Shown one piece after another: positions 3 to 8,837 of a DNA stretch of 64,000 nt (positions are counted from its first letter, which is position 1; each line of letters begins with the position of its first letter). Origin of the DNA: an uncultured delta proteobacterium (GTDB lineage Bacteria; Desulfobacterota; Desulfobacteria; Desulfobacterales; SG8-13); NCBI GenBank assembly GCA_963848135.1, contig CAWKCK010000017.1, forward strand, positions 186,001 through 250,000, in the 5' to 3' direction. Under the pieces are notes generated by a model that saw only the letters and a list, made by a program, of their open reading frames with translations, was not told the origin of the DNA and made no database searches. Both the position numbers and the translations under genes were made by a program.

Positions 3-1115
3 GGAGCAGCCTATCTGGCCCGCCTGCTGGACACCGTCCCTTTGGCCGTCAATGCTCAGCATTACGCAAAAATCGTGCACGACAAGGCCAAGCTGAGACA
101 ACTGATCCGGAAGGCCAGCGACATTACCCGCCGTTGTTTCGAAGACCGTGGAGAAGTAGACGCTGTCATCGACTTTGCCGAAGCATCGATCTTTGAAATT
201 TCAGAAAACAAAACCCATAAGTCCTTTCATCCTCTCAGTAAGATGATCGAAGACAATATCGATCGGCTGGAAGAACGCCAAGGCAACAAATCTCTGATTA
301 CGGGAGTTTCGACAGGCTTCTCACTTTTAGACCATAAAACCTCCGGCCTGCAAAATTCCGACCTTATCATTCTGGCTGCCCGCCCCGGAATGGGGAAAAC
401 CGCCTTCGCCCTCAACATCGCCCGCAATGCCGCTATAGATGCCGGTGTTCCGATCGCCCTGTTCTCGCTTGAAATGTCCAAGGAACAGTTGTCCATGCGG
501 ATGCTCAGTAGTGAAGCACGAATTGACTCCACACGCTTGAGGAGCGGATTCATCAGTCAGGAGGATTGGATGAGGATTACCGAAGCGGCCAGCGAACTCT
601 CGAACACACCGATTTTCATTGACGATTCACCGGTACTGACAGCCATGGATATCCGCGCCAAGGCGCGCCGACTGAAGTTGGATAAAAATATCGGTATGGT
701 CATTATCGATTATATCCAGCTGATGCAGGGCCGGCAATCTGCAGAACGCCGCGAGTTGGAAATCTCTGAAATTTCCCGCGGGTTGAAGGCGCTGGCAAAG
801 GAACTCAACATCCCGGTCGTCGCCCTTTCCCAACTCAACCGGATGCTCGAACAGCGCAGCGACAAGCGACCACAACTCTCGGACTTACGAGAATCGGGGG
901 CACTGGAGCAGGATGCCGATGTTGTCGCATTCATCTACCGGGATGAAGTGTATAACAAGGATGAAAATAATCCCAACAAAGGCAAAGCCGAGATAATCAT
1001 CTCCAAGCAGCGTAACGGACCCATCGGTACGATTCCTCTCGTCTTTCTTAACGCGTATACCCGTTTTGAAAATCCAGCCGATGAGGACATGACCGCGCCG
1101 TATCCGGAACAATAA
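3..1115 (+). CDS. dnaB: Replicative DNA helicase, 5' end outside the window
   Basis: Walker A AARPGMGKT, IIDYIQLM, LSQLNR, DLRESGALEQDAD, KQRNGP. The frame is open from the window edge (GAAYLARLLDTVP...). Confidence 0.97.
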   Translation, partial: GAAYLARLLDTVPLAVNAQHYAKIVHDKAKLRQLIRKASDITRRCFEDRGEVDAVIDFAEASIFEISENKTHKSFHPLSKMIEDNIDRLEERQGNKSLITGVSTGFSLLDHKTSGLQNSDLIILAARPGMGKTAFALNIARNAAIDAGVPIALFSLEMSKEQLSMRMLSSEARIDSTRLRSGFISQEDWMRITEAASELSNTPIFIDDSPVLTAMDIRAKARRLKLDKNIGMVIIDYIQLMQGRQSAERRELEISEISRGLKALAKELNIPVVALSQLNRMLEQRSDKRPQLSDLRESGALEQDADVVAFIYRDEVYNKDENNPNKGKAEIIISKQRNGPIGTIPLVFLNAYTRFENPADEDMTAPYPEQ

Positions 1116-1358: not shown

Positions 1359-3035
1359 ATGAAAAAGATTTACGGAAATACCGGTGGCCTCAAGGCCAAC
1401 CAGACGCGCAGACTCGAAAAACTCTATCGCCGCCGTGTTCCACCCGATCAAGTCATCACTTTCGAACTTTCCCGAGAAATCAGCAGCCTGTCCCATGAAA
1501 TTCACCGACAGGTGGGTCTTCTCATCGATCGCAGCGGACGGATTCGCTGGGTTATCGTGGGCAATCACCAAAAAATCTTCATACCGGACATCAGCTCCTA
1601 CCGCGTGGCCCCGGGGCGTCTCCGTGGCTTACGGTGCCTGCACACTCACCTGAAAGCTGAGCCACTGACCAAAGATGATCTGAACGATTTAGCCATGTTA
1701 CGGCTCGACATTATGGGGGCCCTCAGTGCCGGTAACGACGGGCATGTTCCACTGATCTACCTGTCCCATATACTACCTGGCGCCACCGCTAAAAAACCCT
1801 ATCAAGTTCTACCACCACTGAAAACCAATGCACTGAATATCGAATGTTTGAGTGTCATCCGGGCCCTCGAGGACGAACTGGCCCAGGTGCGTTCGCTTCA
1901 CAAGGCTGCAGACGGAAAGGAGCGGGCGTTGCTGATCTCCGTTACCAGTAAACCGGCTAAAAGGGCGCGGGATAGTTTGACTGAGCTCAATGAATTGGCC
2001 GTATCCAGCGATATCGAGGTGGTCGGCACGGTCCTGCAGCAACGCAAACATATCGACTCTCGGTTTCTGATGGGTCGGGGAAAAATGGAAGAAATTATTC
2101 TCACTGCTCTTAACCGGGCAGCTTCGATGATCATCTTCGATCAGGAACTCAACTCCTCGCAAATCAGAGCGATCACAGACCAGGTTGACATCAAGGTCAT
2201 CGATCGAACCATGCTTATCCTCGACATTTTTGCCCAACGCGCCCAGTCAAAGGAAGGTAAACTGCAAGTCGAGTTGGCTCAACTCAAATACCTGCTGCCA
2301 CGCCTGGTTGTTAAAAACACGGCCATGTCGCGCCTGACAGGGGGCATCGGAGGGCGGGGTCCTGGTGAAACCAAACTCGAAATTAATCGCCGCCGGGTAC
2401 GTGACCGGATTGTCCAGTTGGAGAAAGCCCTGGTCCTCGTGCGTCGACAGCGCAAACAGCAACGATCTCAACGAAGCAAAAAGCAATTGCCGATCATCTC
2501 CATTGTCGGCTATACCAATGCCGGTAAATCCACGCTTCTCAATACCCTGACAAACAGTCAGGAACTGGTCGAGAACCGTCTTTTTGCAACCCTCGATCCT
2601 TCGAGCCGGCGCCTGCGTTTTCCTCGGGACATCGAGGTCATCATTACGGACACGGTCGGTTTTATCAAGGATCTCCCCCGGGATCTCGTGGTCGCCTTCC
2701 GGGCCACTTTGGAGGAATTGGAAAGCGCCGATCTGCTCCTGCACGTCATCGACATCAGCAATCCCCGCTATATGGACCAGATCAGGTCGGTGGAAAAAAT
2801 CTTGGATGATCTGGAACTCCAAAAACTTCAATCTATCCGGGTGCTGAACAAGCAGGATCTGCTTGAACCGGAAAAATTACGCAATCTGACCCAAAAACTC
2901 GACGGTATTCCGATTTCTGCCAAAACGGAGACCTCATTGATGCCCCTGGTTGTTGAGATGCAGAAACATTTCATTCAACCCGCATATGTGACCGGAAACC
3001 AGAAGGAAAGGAAGGCATCCGATGGAATTGGATAG
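1359..3035 (+). CDS. hflX: GTPase HflX, long form with N-terminal extension
   Basis: ILDIFAQRA, GKLQVELAQL, GGRGPGETKLE, GYTNAGKSTL, LFATLD, DTVGF, NKQD. Confidence 0.96.
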   Translation: MKKIYGNTGGLKANQTRRLEKLYRRRVPPDQVITFELSREISSLSHEIHRQVGLLIDRSGRIRWVIVGNHQKIFIPDISSYRVAPGRLRGLRCLHTHLKAEPLTKDDLNDLAMLRLDIMGALSAGNDGHVPLIYLSHILPGATAKKPYQVLPPLKTNALNIECLSVIRALEDELAQVRSLHKAADGKERALLISVTSKPAKRARDSLTELNELAVSSDIEVVGTVLQQRKHIDSRFLMGRGKMEEIILTALNRAASMIIFDQELNSSQIRAITDQVDIKVIDRTMLILDIFAQRAQSKEGKLQVELAQLKYLLPRLVVKNTAMSRLTGGIGGRGPGETKLEINRRRVRDRIVQLEKALVLVRRQRKQQRSQRSKKQLPIISIVGYTNAGKSTLLNTLTNSQELVENRLFATLDPSSRRLRFPRDIEVIITDTVGFIKDLPRDLVVAFRATLEELESADLLLHVIDISNPRYMDQIRSVEKILDDLELQKLQSIRVLNKQDLLEPEKLRNLTQKLDGIPISAKTETSLMPLVVEMQKHFIQPAYVTGNQKERKASDGIG

Positions 3036-3813
3036 AATCAAGAGTGTCGGTATTGCCGCTGCATATAAGGGGGCTGACGTCCTGCGGTCCAAGTTCGGCA
3101 ATATCTCCCAGACCCGGAAAAAGGGCGTCATCGATCTGGTCACCGAGGCCGATACAGCCTCCGAAGAATGCATATTAAAAATCATACGAACGACGTTCCC
3201 GGATCACAGCATTTTGGCCGAAGAAAGCGGCCAGGACGCCCGTGATGCGTCGCTCGTATGGATCGTAGACCCTTTGGATGGGACTACCAACTTTGCGCAT
3301 CAAATCGGCTGGTACGCGATATCGATCGCATTTGCCGTGGAAGGAAAAGTTGTGGTTGGCATCGTGCTCAATCCTGTGAACGGTGAACTGTTCACGGCCA
3401 CGGTCGGCGACGGTGCGACGTGCAACAATCATCCTATCCGGGTTTCAACGGTTGGCGATTTTTCCGACTGTCTGCTTGTTACCGGTTTCCCTTATAATGT
3501 CAGGGAAAACCTGGAACCGGTCGTTACCCGTTTCACACGTTGTTTGAACGCGGCTCAGGGTATTCGTCGACTGGGATCTGCTGCACTGGATTTGTGCTAT
3601 GTTGCCGGTGGTCGATTTGAAGGATTTTGGGAAGAATATCTGAAACCTTGGGATACCGCGGCGGGAGTGCTGATTGCCAGGGAGGCCGGCGCTCAGGTGA
3701 CCGATTTTTCCGGTCGGCCCCATTCGCTCGCAGGCCGCGAAACCTTGGCCACCAATGGCCGGATCCATGAAGATATGCTGAAATTGCTACAGTTGCCTTT
3801 AACGGATCGGTGA
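3022..3813 (+). CDS. suhB: Inositol monophosphatase family protein
   Basis: DLVTEAD, WIVDPLDGTTNF, RRLGSAALD, WDTAAG. Overlaps the hflX stop. Confidence 0.93.
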   Translation: MELDRIKSVGIAAAYKGADVLRSKFGNISQTRKKGVIDLVTEADTASEECILKIIRTTFPDHSILAEESGQDARDASLVWIVDPLDGTTNFAHQIGWYAISIAFAVEGKVVVGIVLNPVNGELFTATVGDGATCNNHPIRVSTVGDFSDCLLVTGFPYNVRENLEPVVTRFTRCLNAAQGIRRLGSAALDLCYVAGGRFEGFWEEYLKPWDTAAGVLIAREAGAQVTDFSGRPHSLAGRETLATNGRIHEDMLKLLQLPLTDR

Positions 3814-3969: not shown

Positions 3970-5310
3970 CTAAAATTTGCCCGATTGGAGCTTCTGGTGG
4001 AAGAAGTTGATCTGTTTTCGAACGGCTCCATTTTCCTTCATTCTCTTTTCAATGCTGTTTATGGCGTGTAAAACGGTGGCATGATAGCGGTTGAAGCTCC
4101 GGCCGATTGTCTGAAGGGGCGAATCGGTGTGGTGCCGGGCCAGATACATGGCAATCTGCCGCGGCCTTACCAGGCCCTGTTTGCGGGACCGGGAGACAAT
4201 CTCGGCCAGTGAAATTTCGAAATACTTGCAAACCAATTTTTTAACAATATCGATGGTGATCGTATCTCGCTCACGGACGATATTCTTGACAACACTCTCA
4301 GCCAGCGGGATATCTACGGGACAACCGAGAAGGGAGGCCTTAGCGTTTATGCCAATCAGGCCGCTTTCCAGTTGCCGGATATCATCCGTCAACTCCGAGG
4401 CCAGATATTGAATCACCTTCTCCGGGACCTGATAACCCTTCAGCGTTGCCTTGCGTTGCAGGATGCGAACCCTTGTCCTGAAGTTCGGCGCATCGATGGA
4501 CGAAATCAGGCTCGATGAAAGACAAGATCGCAGCTTGTCGTTCAATCTGGGAATCTCAGCCGGACGCGCGCAACTCGAAAATATTATTTTCTTGTCGGCC
4601 TCAAAGAGAGAATCAAGGGTCAAAGAAAGTTCGACCTGGGTGCGCTCTTTACCGCTCAAGTGGTGGACATCCTCCAATAAGAGTACATCGCATCCTTTTC
4701 TGTACTTGCCTTTGAACTCCTCAATGGCATTGCCGCGATAGGCTTGGACCATTTCATTGCTGAAGTCCTCAGCCGTCATGTAGAACACACGTTCTTCGGG
4801 AAACTGAGAGAGGATATGATGACCGATGGCCTGGGTGAGATGGCTCTTTCCCATACCAGTACTGGAAAGGAATAACAGAGAATTCTGCAGGGAACTTTTC
4901 CGGGACGCCAGAGACAGCGCTGCTGAATAAGCAAAGTCATTGTTCCCGCCGACAACATAATGATCGAACGTGAAATCCTTCCGAAGCAAGCGACCGTTGT
5001 GAGGGCGAACAATGACATTGGGCAGTGAAAGCTGCCGGCTCACATCGGGTTGCAGAGCCTTTTCACCGTTACCGTTCGTAACAAGAAATTTCACCTCACA
5101 GGCTTTACCCAAAATTTCAGTAATAGCATCTGAAATATAGGTACCATAATGCGTCTGGACCCTCTTCTTTGAGAACACGTTGGGGCAGGCCAGAACCAGT
5201 TCCCCTTCATCATCCTGATAGCATTTGATAGGCTCAATCCACATTCGAAAACTGTGACAAGGAATCTTGGTCTTAATCGCAGTTTTCACAGAACTCCAGA
5301 CAGTTTCCAT
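3970..5310 (-). CDS. dnaA: DnaA-family protein, divergent paralogue not linked to dnaN
   Basis: Four-domain DnaA layout: domain I (W...W...PN), FTFDHYVVG-NN, STGMGKSHL, LLLEDV, IRQLES, RQIAMYL, RYHATVLHA. Several signature residues are changed. Confidence 0.88.
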   Translation of the reverse strand: METVWSSVKTAIKTKIPCHSFRMWIEPIKCYQDDEGELVLACPNVFSKKRVQTHYGTYISDAITEILGKACEVKFLVTNGNGEKALQPDVSRQLSLPNVIVRPHNGRLLRKDFTFDHYVVGGNNDFAYSAALSLASRKSSLQNSLLFLSSTGMGKSHLTQAIGHHILSQFPEERVFYMTAEDFSNEMVQAYRGNAIEEFKGKYRKGCDVLLLEDVHHLSGKERTQVELSLTLDSLFEADKKIIFSSCARPAEIPRLNDKLRSCLSSSLISSIDAPNFRTRVRILQRKATLKGYQVPEKVIQYLASELTDDIRQLESGLIGINAKASLLGCPVDIPLAESVVKNIVRERDTITIDIVKKLVCKYFEISLAEIVSRSRKQGLVRPRQIAMYLARHHTDSPLQTIGRSFNRYHATVLHAINSIEKRMKENGAVRKQINFFHQKLQSGKF

Positions 5311-5647
5311 AGGGCGCGATACTCAGAATTGTTAGGCTATTGTTAAAGATAGGGTGATTAAGTTTCTGTAATGCCTGACATAATCTCTATAAAACGTTGA
5401 TGTATTACGATTTGGAAGGTTTATATAAGATTTTTTTATCCCCGGAAAAATTGTTACATGCCTCATATCGATATCAGCATGTCGGTGTCAAACCGGATGG
5501 ATAGTGTTTGCGCATTAAATCGCAGATAGTTATCAACAATTTATATTCAACTGTAATTATTATGATTTTATTCAATTCAGCACCCAACCCCCTTGAAACA
5601 CGTAAAATTTTAATGTTAGGATTTCTTTAAGAATTTTAAGCATATCA

Positions 5648-5667
5648 CCGGTTATCGACATAACCGG
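5648..5667. promoter_or_regulatory. Palindromic operator-like site between dnaA-like and uvrA
   Basis: CCGGTTAT-CGAC-ATAACCGG, a perfect 8-bp inverted repeat containing TTATCGACA. Confidence 0.45.
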
Positions 5668-6005
5668 AACAAAAAAGCAATCTCTGTATTTCTTTTATTT
5701 TCTACGTTTTTCTTTAATTTTCGAAAACAACAAACCTTCAACCGCTATTATTTGAATCCGGGTCCGCACTGAAGGCCTGCGCGTTAAAACCGTTTGAAAA
5801 AAACCGGGCGGCCCTGTAGGATACAAAAGTCTTACTGTCATGATTTCGTCCCCTGGCACACTGCAGTGACTGGATGCAGATAGACGCCCGTTAATATGAC
5901 CGGACTTCATCTATACCCGCCGCATGGCCTGGGCAGTCTTGATCACCGGTAGATTCGGCCGTTAGCAACCGGATATCGCCACCAGAAAAACCTTCTACAA
6001 TATAA

Positions 6006-8837
6006 ATGGATTCTGACAAAATAATCATTCGGGGTGCGAGACAGCACAACCTGAAGAACATCAATCTCGATCTTCCGCGCAATAAGCTTATTGTGATCAC
6101 CGGCCTCTCGGGATCGGGAAAATCGACCCTGGCTTTCGACACGCTATATGCTGAGGGACAGCGGAGGTATGTAGAATCGCTGTCCACGTATGCGCGTCAA
6201 TTTCTGGAGCGCATGGAGAAACCGGAGGTGGATCTGATCGAAGGTCTTTCTCCGGCCATTGCCATTGAGCAGAAAACTGCCAGCCACAACCCACGCTCCA
6301 CGGTCGGAACGGTAACTGAAATATATGACTACCTCAGATTGCTCTTCGCGCGGATCGGAACGCCCTACTGCTACCAGTGCGGCCATCCCATCACACCGCA
6401 GTCACTCGATCAGATCGTGGATCGGATTCTATCCCTTCCACAGGGTAGCCGTATCATTATAACTGCTCCCTTGGTGACCGAAGAGAAAGGTGATCATGAA
6501 AAACTTTTTAAACGCCTTCGAAAAGACGGTTTCGCGCGGGTGCGCATTAACGGCGACATTTATGAAATCGAGTCCATCGGTCGATTAGACAAGGGCAAAA
6601 TTTACTCCATCGATGTGGTGGTAGACCGCCTGATTATCAAGGATAACATCCAAAACCGACTGGCCGATTCCCTTGAACTCGCCCTGGCCCTTTCAGATGG
6701 TCAGGTCGCCGTGGACGTTCTGGACGGCAACCCCATTCACTTCAGCGAAAAAGCAACCTGTACCCGGTGTGATATCAGTTATTCTGAATTCACACCGGCC
6801 AGTTTTTCATTTAACTCTCCCCAGGGCGCATGTCTGCGCTGTGACGGATTGGGAACGACAACCGAATTTAATCCGGATCTGATCATACCAAATTCTGAAC
6901 TCTCCTTGCGGGAGGGTACCGTCGTCATCTGGGCCAATCGCAGCACCATGCAATTTATAGAGTTTCTCGACGCCCTGACCGTCCACTACGGTACCGATAT
7001 ATATACTCCATACAAAGATCTTCCGGCACGATTCAAGCAAGTCATCCTCTACGGATCCGGCAAAGAAGAAATTACTTTTTACTTCGAGCGCGGAGACCGC
7101 AGAGTCACTTTTCGCAAACCATTCGAGGGTATAATCCCCAAGCTGAAACGCCGCTACGCGGAAACCGATTCCTATCAGGTCAGGGAAGAAATCAAGCAGT
7201 ACATGGACTTCAGTCCCTGCCCGGATTGCCGCGGGGCCAAGCTCAATCGCGAAAGCCGCTGCGTTAAAATTTCGGGAATGGCGATCCAAGAAATTTCCGC
7301 CCTGTCAATCGGCCAGACCCGCAAGACGCTAAAAGGCTTGAACTTGGAAGGACAACAGGCCTATGTTGCCGATCGGATTCTCAAGGAAATCGATGAACGC
7401 CTCGGATTCCTGGAAAACGTCGGATTGGCATATCTGACGTTGGACCGCACGGCTGCAACCCTCTCCGGGGGCGAAAGCCAGCGAATCAGACTGGCCACAC
7501 AAATCGGCTCGAAGCTCACCGGCGTTCTCTACGTTCTCGATGAACCGAGTATCGGACTTCATCAGCGCGACAACCGGAATCTTTTGCAAACGCTTCTGCA
7601 GATGCGCGATCTGGGCAACACCGTGCTGGTCGTTGAGCACGATGAAGAAACCATACGTGCCGCTGACCTGGTCGTCGACATGGGGCCCGGTGCCGGGGTG
7701 AACGGCGGTCATGTAGTATTCGCCGGTTCTCCCGATGACCTGTTCAAAGACACCGCCTCCCTGACCGGCCAGTATCTATCCGGCCGCAGGAAAATTGCCA
7801 TACCCCGACACCGGCGGAATGGCACTGCGACCAAACTCGTCATCAAAGGCGCCACGGCCAACAATCTGAAGAATATCGACGTCACTTTCCCACTCGGTAC
7901 CTTCATTTGTGTCACCGGCGTTTCCGGGTCCGGGAAATCGACCCTTGTTCTGGAAACCTTGTATAATCTTCTTGCCCAGCGAATTTACCGGGCCCGAATC
8001 CCAGCCGGCCCTCACCGCTCCGTTAACGGGTTGGAGCTGATCGACAAAGTCGTCAATATAGACCAGGCCCCGATAGGAAAAACACCCCGTTCCAACCCGG
8101 GAACCTATACCGGCCTTTTCAATCATATCCGGGATCTTTATGCTCGAACACCGGAGTCCCGCATGCGAGGATACAAGCCCGGCCGGTTCAGCTTCAACGT
8201 CAAAGGTGGTCGTTGTGAATCCTGTCGCGGTGACGGTATCGTTAAAATAGAAATGCATTTTCTACCCGACGTCTATGTCACCTGCGATGTCTGTCGGGGA
8301 CTACGTTACAATCGTGAAACCCTCGAAATTCGGTATAAAGGCAAAAACATTGCCGAGGTGCTGAAAATGACAGTCAACCAGGCGCTGGCCTTTTTCGAGC
8401 GGATCGGCAACATCCGCACCAAATTGCAGACACTGGTCGATGTCGGATTGGGTTACATAAAGCTTGGGCAACAGGCGACGACCCTATCGGGCGGCGAAGC
8501 ACAACGGGTGAAACTGGCGCGGGAACTCAGCAAGAAGGGAACCGGCAATTGCTTCTATATTCTCGATGAACCGACCACCGGTCTGCATGTCGACGACATT
8601 CGCAAACTCCTCGATGTGCTCAACCGTCTGGTGGATGCCGGAAATACGATTGTCGTCATTGAACACAATCTGGATGTTATCAAAACGGCCGATTACATCA
8701 TCGATTTGGGGCCGGAGGGTGGTGACGAAGGGGGGTATGTGGTTGCTTGCGGTCGACCGGAGGAAATCGCCGTCACAGCCGCCTCTCACACCGGCCGTTG
8801 GTTAAAGGGGGTCTTACAGAAAGCCGGGCCCGGCTGA
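6006..8837 (+). CDS. uvrA: Excinuclease ABC subunit A
   Basis: [29 protein letters not shown], two ABC ATPase modules (LSGGE), Zn-finger CxxC pairs; 943 aa. Confidence 0.98.

Follow-up and report, generated by a model that had tools for sequence, protein, structure and literature searches.

The only DnaA of an uncultured Desulfobacterales bacterium carries a conserved, Hda-type clamp-binding-like motif in its linker

Introduction

The clamp-binding peptides of Hda from Escherichia coli (QLSLPL) and of HdaA from Caulobacter (QFKLPL) are both required for binding to the sliding clamp (PMC3836487), and an arginine finger, R153, is indispensable to Hda (cited in PMC3836487). In Bacillus subtilis, YabA binds DnaA as well as DnaN and is described as holding DnaA at the sliding clamp during replication (PMC4705661). 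Here, we describe a dnaA gene whose product has a peptide of the Hda type, QLSLP, in the linker that precedes its AAA+ domain. The gene lies in a stretch of 64,000 nucleotides (the window; positions 186,001 to 250,000 of contig CAWKCK010000017.1, assembly GCA_963848135.1) from an uncultured delta proteobacterium of the Desulfobacterales. An earlier note, made from the letters of the window, had taken the protein for a DnaA paralogue and a candidate DnaA/Hda hybrid that may dock on the clamp and may regulate a separate, primary DnaA. It is near certain that the gene is the only dnaA of its genome, and the motif in its linker is a hint that the initiator and ongoing replication may be linked directly, in a way not described so far.

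Results

Identity and copy number of the dnaA gene

The genome (G000: 6.03 Mb, 18 contigs, 98.65% complete; the window is G000:C17:186001-250000) encodes DnaA in a single uninterrupted frame of 446 codons (Table 1). The protein exceeds the cut-off of the NCBIfam DnaA equivalog TIGR00362 (393.8 bits vs. 343.9, spanning residues 5-440) and stays below that of the Hda family TIGR03420 (75.7 bits vs. 194.8). Its four-part architecture is complete, with domain I, a linker, an AAA+ domain with Walker A and a helix-turn-helix domain IV. All three Pfam DnaA domains are present, in agreement with the earlier note, which had described a full-length DnaA keeping domains I and IV. An AlphaFold2 (AF2) model was calculated from alignment A2, whose 67 rows were picked by eye from motif-bearing lineages for the purpose of folding and co-folding; its mean pLDDT (predicted local distance difference test score) is 85.8. 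Domain I is built of helices and strands in this model (pLDDT 75-90), and G152, G154 and K155 of the Walker A motif are invariant across the 67 rows.

Searches of the genome with the DnaA protein, with PF00308 and with PF08299 led to one and the same gene each time. A second DnaA was not found in the genome, neither beside dnaN nor elsewhere; the next matches had E = 0.05 (PF00308) and E = 0.13 (PF08299). Hda was likewise not found in the genome with TIGR03420 and the domain searches, nor was there a match to the YabA family. Among 41 related genomes, G000 counted in, 40 have a DnaA match, and 37 of these 40 have a single one. Because the match is single in the own genome and mostly single-copy in the relatives, this DnaA is the replication initiator of the lineage and not a second copy. 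The term paralogue therefore has to be given up: the protein is the only DnaA of a nearly complete genome and lies above the DnaA cut-off, and there is no primary DnaA that it could regulate. Some lineages of families f43 (e.g. G053, G127, G188) and f70/f80 have two or three DnaA-like genes with frames of 342-585 codons. From family f43, named Desulfarculales by its source names, the DnaA copy that was retrieved bears the linker motif described below.

A conserved motif in the linker

QLSLP occupies residues 93-97, just before the AAA+ domain and exactly where the earlier note had read it; the Pfam Bac_DnaA domain (109-269) follows 11 residues downstream. A likeness to the Hda type is seen in five of the six positions of the E. 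coli Hda peptide QLSLPL, which are matched. AF2 gives no secondary structure over residues 78-114, and the pLDDT in blocks of ten residues is 40 (81-90), 55 (91-100) and 67 (101-110). Short linear motifs are usually found in such unstructured segments of low confidence.

A lone QLxLP in one protein means little; the excess over chance lies in its conservation. We examined a sample of 301 genomes of the phylum (at least 90% complete, 293 with a DnaA match) and retrieved DnaA from as many of its families as could be covered. A tree was calculated from domains III-IV only, so that the motif had no vote (128 rows; IQ-TREE quick search, LG+G4). It omits the near-duplicates L010, L011, L014-L022 and L026 as well as L148-L227, the 80 loci that cover the Desulfobacterales densely. 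L253, which has no DnaA frame, and L265-L267, with paralogue-like or cut frames, are also omitted. The tree fell into two clans of 55 rows (SH-aLRT 100) and 71 rows, and two rows were unresolved. The strict motif was defined as Q[LMFIVWY]x[LIFMV]P within the 45 residues preceding the AAA+ domain. In the clan of 71 rows, which includes Desulfobacterales, Desulfarculales and further families, 51 rows have it, and in the clan of 55 rows none does. Shuffling each stretch of 45 residues gave a mean of 1.1 of 71 rows.

Orthologues from the same genus, family and order have the motif at the aligned place in 27 of 29 cases, the exceptions reading QLPLQ and QRQLP. It is present in 115 of the 119 closest database homologues and in 70 of 80 named Desulfobacterales-type loci from metagenome-assembled genomes (MAGs; 58-79% identity), five more of which have QLPLL; these counts are for the whole set, which includes MAGs labelled Desulfatibacillum and Desulfosarcina. 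Desulfarculales-type homologues of one distant member of the clan, with the source names Desulfarculus, Desulfoferula mesophila and Dethiosulfatarculus sandiegensis, have it in 96 of 115 cases, and the latter two species are among the cultured relatives with a motif-bearing DnaA. The spacing is conserved as well: in 117 of 134 motif-bearing sequences the distance from the Q to the F of the FTFD anchor, with which domain III starts, is exactly 20 residues. At positions -20, -19, -17 and -16 of this anchor the 71-row clan has Q in 49, L in 38, L in 44 and P in 46 rows. Orthologues keep the motif although domain II drifts around it, a behaviour for which the earlier note had suggested to look.

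Could the motif be without function, a chance match that was retained through shared ancestry? A single QLxLP is indeed unremarkable, as there are 14 instances of the slightly wider pattern Q[LMFIVWY]x[LIFMV][PF] among the 24,731 residues of the 55 motif-less DnaAs, and relatives are non-independent samples. However, none of these 55 proteins has the wider pattern within the 45 residues before its AAA+ domain, against the 51 of 71 rows with the strict motif in the other clan. In addition, the entropy of the four motif columns is 1.9-2.4 bits vs. 3.4-3.9 bits in the neighbouring linker columns, in sequences that are only 35-45% identical overall. We therefore consider a functionless motif highly unlikely, and QLxLP is very probably a short linear motif under selection. 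The near invariance of Q93 in alignment A2 was not used as evidence, since it is circular given the choice of the rows.

Hda-like proteins in the phylum

None of the 301 genomes of the phylum has a protein that passes the TIGR03420 cut-off. Short Hda-like frames (243-307 codons, 134-159 bits on TIGR03420) were found in 13 genomes of families f53, f87 and f81; this census is one of short frames, and longer extra DnaA-like matches lie outside it. The ten short proteins that were inspected (L108-L117) start with MQQIFDFP, MQLVFDFP, MIQLILPL, MDQMLLPL and similar sequences. These hook-like peptides are N-terminal and precede the AAA+ anchor by about 10 residues. DnaAs from 11 of the 13 genomes were examined; all are without the linker motif and all belong to the motif-less clan. 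Conversely, none of the 71 rows of the motif clan comes from a genome with a short Hda-like protein. This is the pattern that is expected if the motif in DnaA and a separate Hda are alternatives.

The idea that Hda descends from a DnaA of the motif type was dropped, since the DnaAs of the motif clan match the Hda model more weakly (E ~1e-18 to 1e-30) than the motif-less ones (~1e-30 to 1e-36). Among the DnaA-like representatives of public proteins, P0186 (697 aa) has an N-terminal hook: it begins with MSAGNQLQLF, and the LNPN anchor of the AAA+ module comes directly after.

A cysteine at the position of the arginine finger

The DnaA of the window lacks the arginine finger of box VII. The BLASTP alignment with DnaA of E. 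coli K-12 is ungapped in this region (query 220-279 = subject 242-301) and pairs Cys263 with Arg285 and Lys259 with Arg281; by the same offset, Arg312 aligns with the sensor-2 Arg334. The alignment with B. subtilis DnaA (8btg) likewise shows RSC here vs. RSR. In 594 aligned DnaAs, the column has R in 553 and C in 33 sequences. The Cys set comprises all 14 sequences of the genus of the window and a few other Desulfobacterales, whereas other genera of the same family retain Arg. The codon of Cys263, TGT, is one base away from CGT; a sequence error is not the explanation because independent assemblies share the Cys. The assignment to DnaA by homology stands nevertheless, as the residue is a functional one and no criterion of homology. 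An arginine two residues upstream (LRSCLS) is retained and might take over the role.

In E. coli, loss of Arg285 would cripple the ATP-dependent activation of the origin (PMC5742627). A sole DnaA that has lost the arginine finger puts the generality of this model in question. Because the position is a Cys, it is also doubtful that the DnaA of this genus could act as a donor of an arginine finger in the manner of Hda. As for the DnaA/Hda hybrid of the earlier note, the Hda-like peptide stands, but the case for catalysis in the manner of Hda is weaker in this genus.

Is the motif a clamp hook?

Known beta-clamp motifs follow the pentapeptide consensus QL[SD]LF or the hexapeptide consensus QLxLxL. 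In G000 itself, QLLLPF occurs 21 residues from the end of the Pol IV homologue, QLSLF in a second Y-family polymerase and QLGLF close to the C-terminus of MutS. Because these clamp clients bear such peptides, Q-L-x-L-[PF] would be the local form of the hook. The peptide in DnaA shares its features: Q at position 1, hydrophobic residues at positions 2 and 4, P at position 5, where F or P is found in clients, a flexible segment and conservation in orthologues. We therefore take a built-in beta-clamp-binding motif of the Hda type on the initiator as the best single reading of the sequence, one which in our opinion has an even chance of being correct.

The docking on the clamp that the earlier note had considered was addressed by co-folding two copies of the DnaN of this genome with residues 78-128 of DnaA (both as alignments). 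The score was 0.59 (runs 0.57, 0.63 and 0.59) vs. 0.01 for the best of three controls; the pLDDT of the partner was 42 or more, and at least 72% of the contacts agreed between runs. Of the 157 solved complexes in the calibration, 116 reached the mark, as did 2 of 215 mismatched pairs. Scores of up to 0.60 were given by only 18 of the 157 solved complexes, and by both of the mismatches.

Several observations weigh against the clamp hook. The co-fold, a score without a contact list, gives weak support for binding to the clamp and may reflect a likeness to known clamp-peptide complexes. Many of the solved structures are of such complexes. The sixth position of the hexapeptide is neither hydrophobic here, where it is N, nor conserved; in the 71 rows of the clan it is N in 12, G in 12, L in 9 and D in 7. 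The fixed spacing of 20 residues is not required of a free hook, and the segment could work together with the AAA+ domain. A semi-conserved patch, G-R-x-L, follows directly after the motif (positions -7, -6 and -4); together with the spacing it suggests a unit that is tied to domain III. Furthermore, the strict motif is missing from 20 of the 71 rows of the clan; in roughly half of these it is weakened to forms such as QQPLP, QMSFF, QPVLP, QLMLM or QLPLQ, and some have none. Among representatives of all public proteins at 50% identity, the motif is present in 17 of the best 50, in 3 of the 50 that come next and in 1 of the last 50. Because it thins out by rank in this way, it is a feature of the 71-row clan, with scattered look-alikes elsewhere. 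The complementarity of the motif and Hda rests on three families and is not statistically independent, and 44 of the 55 motif-less rows have no Hda-like protein either. Finally, a catalytic mechanism like that of Hda cannot simply be transferred to a genus with Cys at the arginine finger.

Some of these observations would also fit a conserved linker motif with another job, for example a contact to the helicase or its loader, a contact to the AAA+ domain in cis or to a neighbouring protomer of the DnaA filament, or a site for a protease or an adaptor, in which case the likeness to a hook would be coincidental. The fixed spacing, the patch that makes the motif part of a larger unit, the variable sixth position and the modest co-fold result are all in line with this. 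According to a 2017 review, domain II may have a part in the recruitment of DnaB in E. coli, and there is little information on motifs in domain II (PMC5448010). On the other hand, the four conserved positions are exactly those of the hooks of Pol IV, the second Y-family polymerase and MutS of the same genome, and AF2 leaves the segment unpacked, with pLDDT values of 40-55. Moreover, all three controls of the co-fold scored at most 0.01, and no result points to another partner. Another job is thus possible, though in our view on the unlikely side.

Position relative to the origin of replication

The dnaN gene is found on a separate contig (C3:439905-441020) and gyrB follows directly. The GC skew of C3 changes from -0.0196 left of 439 kb to +0.0206 right of it, with the cumulative minimum at 432-440 kb, and C3 is the only contig of more than 100 kb with a skew minimum in its interior. 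As judged from GC skew only, the origin would therefore lie at dnaN-gyrB on C3, away from dnaA. On C17 the skew is -0.022 and -0.026 on the two sides of dnaA; because the sign stays the same, dnaA lies inside a replichore, at least about 190 kb from a contig end. There is no recF between dnaN and gyrB on C3, and upstream of dnaN there is an AT-rich spacer of 280 bp with repeated TTGTCAA-like words.

An attempt to locate the origin via DnaA boxes was given up, as the scan pinpointed nothing, and GC skew was used in its place. With the E. coli-type consensus TTATCCACA and up to one mismatch, 1369 sites were obtained genome-wide, of which two are near dnaN and two upstream of dnaA; no cluster was found, that is, no interval of 600 bp in the genome has more than three sites.

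The separation of dnaA from dnaN seems to be the normal state of the lineage, because among the matches listed for the relatives the close orthologues of the two genes lie on different contigs. The sole adjacent pair of a dnaA-like and a dnaN-like gene listed in the 41 relatives, on contig C151 of G026, is divergent, with 30% identity for both. For the earlier note, being the only dnaA and sitting at oriC would together have spoken against its reading; the gene is the only dnaA, but the skew origin is elsewhere.

One may still ask whether the protein is not the initiator but a DnaA paralogue that keeps domains I and IV and either regulates a separate primary DnaA in a clamp-coupled manner or serves as a transcription factor that senses replication. 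Its gene is indeed away from dnaN, recF and gyrB and from the skew origin, and the Cys at the arginine finger would be crippling in the E. coli system (PMC5742627). However, the 18 contigs contain no other Bac_DnaA or Bac_DnaA_C match that could belong to a second DnaA or an Hda, the orthologues are predominantly single-copy, and the position off dnaN seems to be shared by the lineage. A paralogue with a regulatory role is thus extremely unlikely.

Neighbouring genes and feature coordinates

As the earlier note had it, dnaA lies between a suhB-like gene (3022-3813, Inositol_P) and uvrA (6006-8837), and dnaN, recF and gyrB are not found near it in the window. The spacer to the divergent uvrA contains two DnaA-box-like sites with one mismatch each, TTATCAACA at 5530 and TTATCGACA at 5652, a number that does not exceed the 0.23 per kb seen across the genome. 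At a distance of about 3 kb from dnaA lies the C-terminal part of the replicative helicase DnaB (DnaB_C, 378.6 bits; 3-1115, forward strand); between this part and dnaA are a gene for an HflX-like GTPase (1359-3035) and suhB.

Table 1 Features of the dnaA locus (window coordinates) and clamp clients of the same genome (contig coordinates).
Feature	Position	Strand	Basis
dnaA, 446 aa	3970..5310	-	Open reading frame and translation; TIGR00362; the one DnaA match in the genome searches
DnaA domain I, residues 2-64	5119..5307	-	Pfam DnaA_N, 47.5 bits
Linker (domain II), residues 78-108, flexible	4987..5079	-	AF2; column entropy
QLSLP, residues 93-97, conserved Hda-type clamp-binding-like motif	5020..5034	-	Sequence, clan columns, co-fold
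AAA+ ATPase domain III core, residues 109-269	4504..4986	-	Pfam Bac_DnaA, 151.8 bits
Walker A GMGKS, residues 152-156	4843..4857	-	Sequence; GxGKS pattern
Cys263, codon TGT, at the position of E. coli arginine finger Arg285 (box VII)	4522..4524	-	BLASTP, 8btg alignment
DnaA domain IV, helix-turn-helix, DNA-binding, residues 354-420	4051..4251	-	Pfam Bac_DnaA_C, 89 bits
AT-rich divergent spacer dnaA/uvrA, 695 bp, presumed dnaA promoter	5311..6005		Sequence and box scan
Pol IV homologue	G000:C5:383003-383449	-	Motif reading
Second Y-family polymerase	G000:C18:662519-662959	+	Motif reading
MutS	G000:C2:309707-312289	-	Motif reading

Discussion

To our knowledge, it is largely unknown how re-firing by DnaA is controlled in bacteria without Hda, that is, outside the proteobacteria whose DnaA undergoes regulatory inactivation (RIDA), and outside the Firmicutes, without YabA. 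The model that we propose for the motif-bearing clan would start from a sole initiator DnaA with intact domains I, III and IV that is encoded far from an origin at dnaN-gyrB. Selection would keep Q-L-x-L-P 20 residues before the AAA+ domain across a large clan of Desulfobacterota DnaAs. After initiation, when clamps have been loaded onto DNA, DnaA would dock directly on DnaN via the linker motif, and this docking would couple the activity of the initiator to ongoing replication without Hda or YabA as a separate adaptor. What happens at the clamp could differ within the clan. In members that keep the arginine finger, clamp-bound DnaA could play the part of Hda. In the genus of the window, capture of DnaA on the clamps behind the fork, with an outcome like that of YabA, would be favoured over hydrolysis in trans by an Hda-like arginine finger, because the position is a Cys; if the hook works, clamp capture is the more economical model for this genus.

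Taken together, an initiator that docks on the loaded clamp via its linker would provide a replication-coupled shut-off made of one protein in a large branch of the Desulfobacterota, and the genus of the window would have given up the arginine finger, with control by clamp capture and not by ATP hydrolysis between protomers. We put forward this combination tentatively and regard it as rather unlikely to hold in every part. If true, it would be a simple answer to the question of re-firing control for a big and ecologically important group of sulfate reducers, and the link from the clamp to the inactivation of DnaA would have been made in at least three ways: by Hda, by YabA and intrinsically. 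A full-text search, with subscription journals outside its coverage, found no paper on a DnaA with a clamp-binding motif of its own, nor on a natural DnaA without the arginine finger.

The canonical DnaAs of E. coli, B. subtilis (PDB 8btg) and Thermotoga maritima (2z4r) have the same four-part architecture as the DnaA described here, which is 30% identical to the E. coli protein over the full length and matches 8btg with 277 bits; Walker A is common to all. In contrast, the linkers of the E. coli and B. subtilis proteins are without such a motif in the alignments, Arg285 and Arg281 of E. coli are replaced by Cys263 and Lys259, and dnaA does not lie beside dnaN, which we also count as a difference from canonical DnaA.

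The closest likeness is to Hda and HdaA, in which a peptide of the Q-L-x-L-P type likewise stands just N-terminal to a DnaA-type AAA+ module. The sixth residue of the Hda hexapeptide, QL[SP]LPL, is not retained, however (QLSLPL vs. QLSLPN). Hda is devoid of domains I and IV, both of which are present here, and has the arginine finger R153 that it needs, where this DnaA has Cys. In the Hda-like proteins of the phylum the hook is N-terminal and about 10 residues before the anchor, whereas in DnaA the motif is internal and 20 residues before it. YabA resembles our model in the proposed outcome, a DnaA that is held on the clamp without catalysis of the Hda type, but YabA is a separate protein, whereas here the hook would belong to DnaA itself. 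The tails of Pol IV, the second Y-family polymerase and MutS have the same Q-L-x-L-[PF] in terminal or flexible segments; there it stands at or near the C-terminus of repair proteins, whereas in DnaA it is placed internally, between two folded domains of the initiator.

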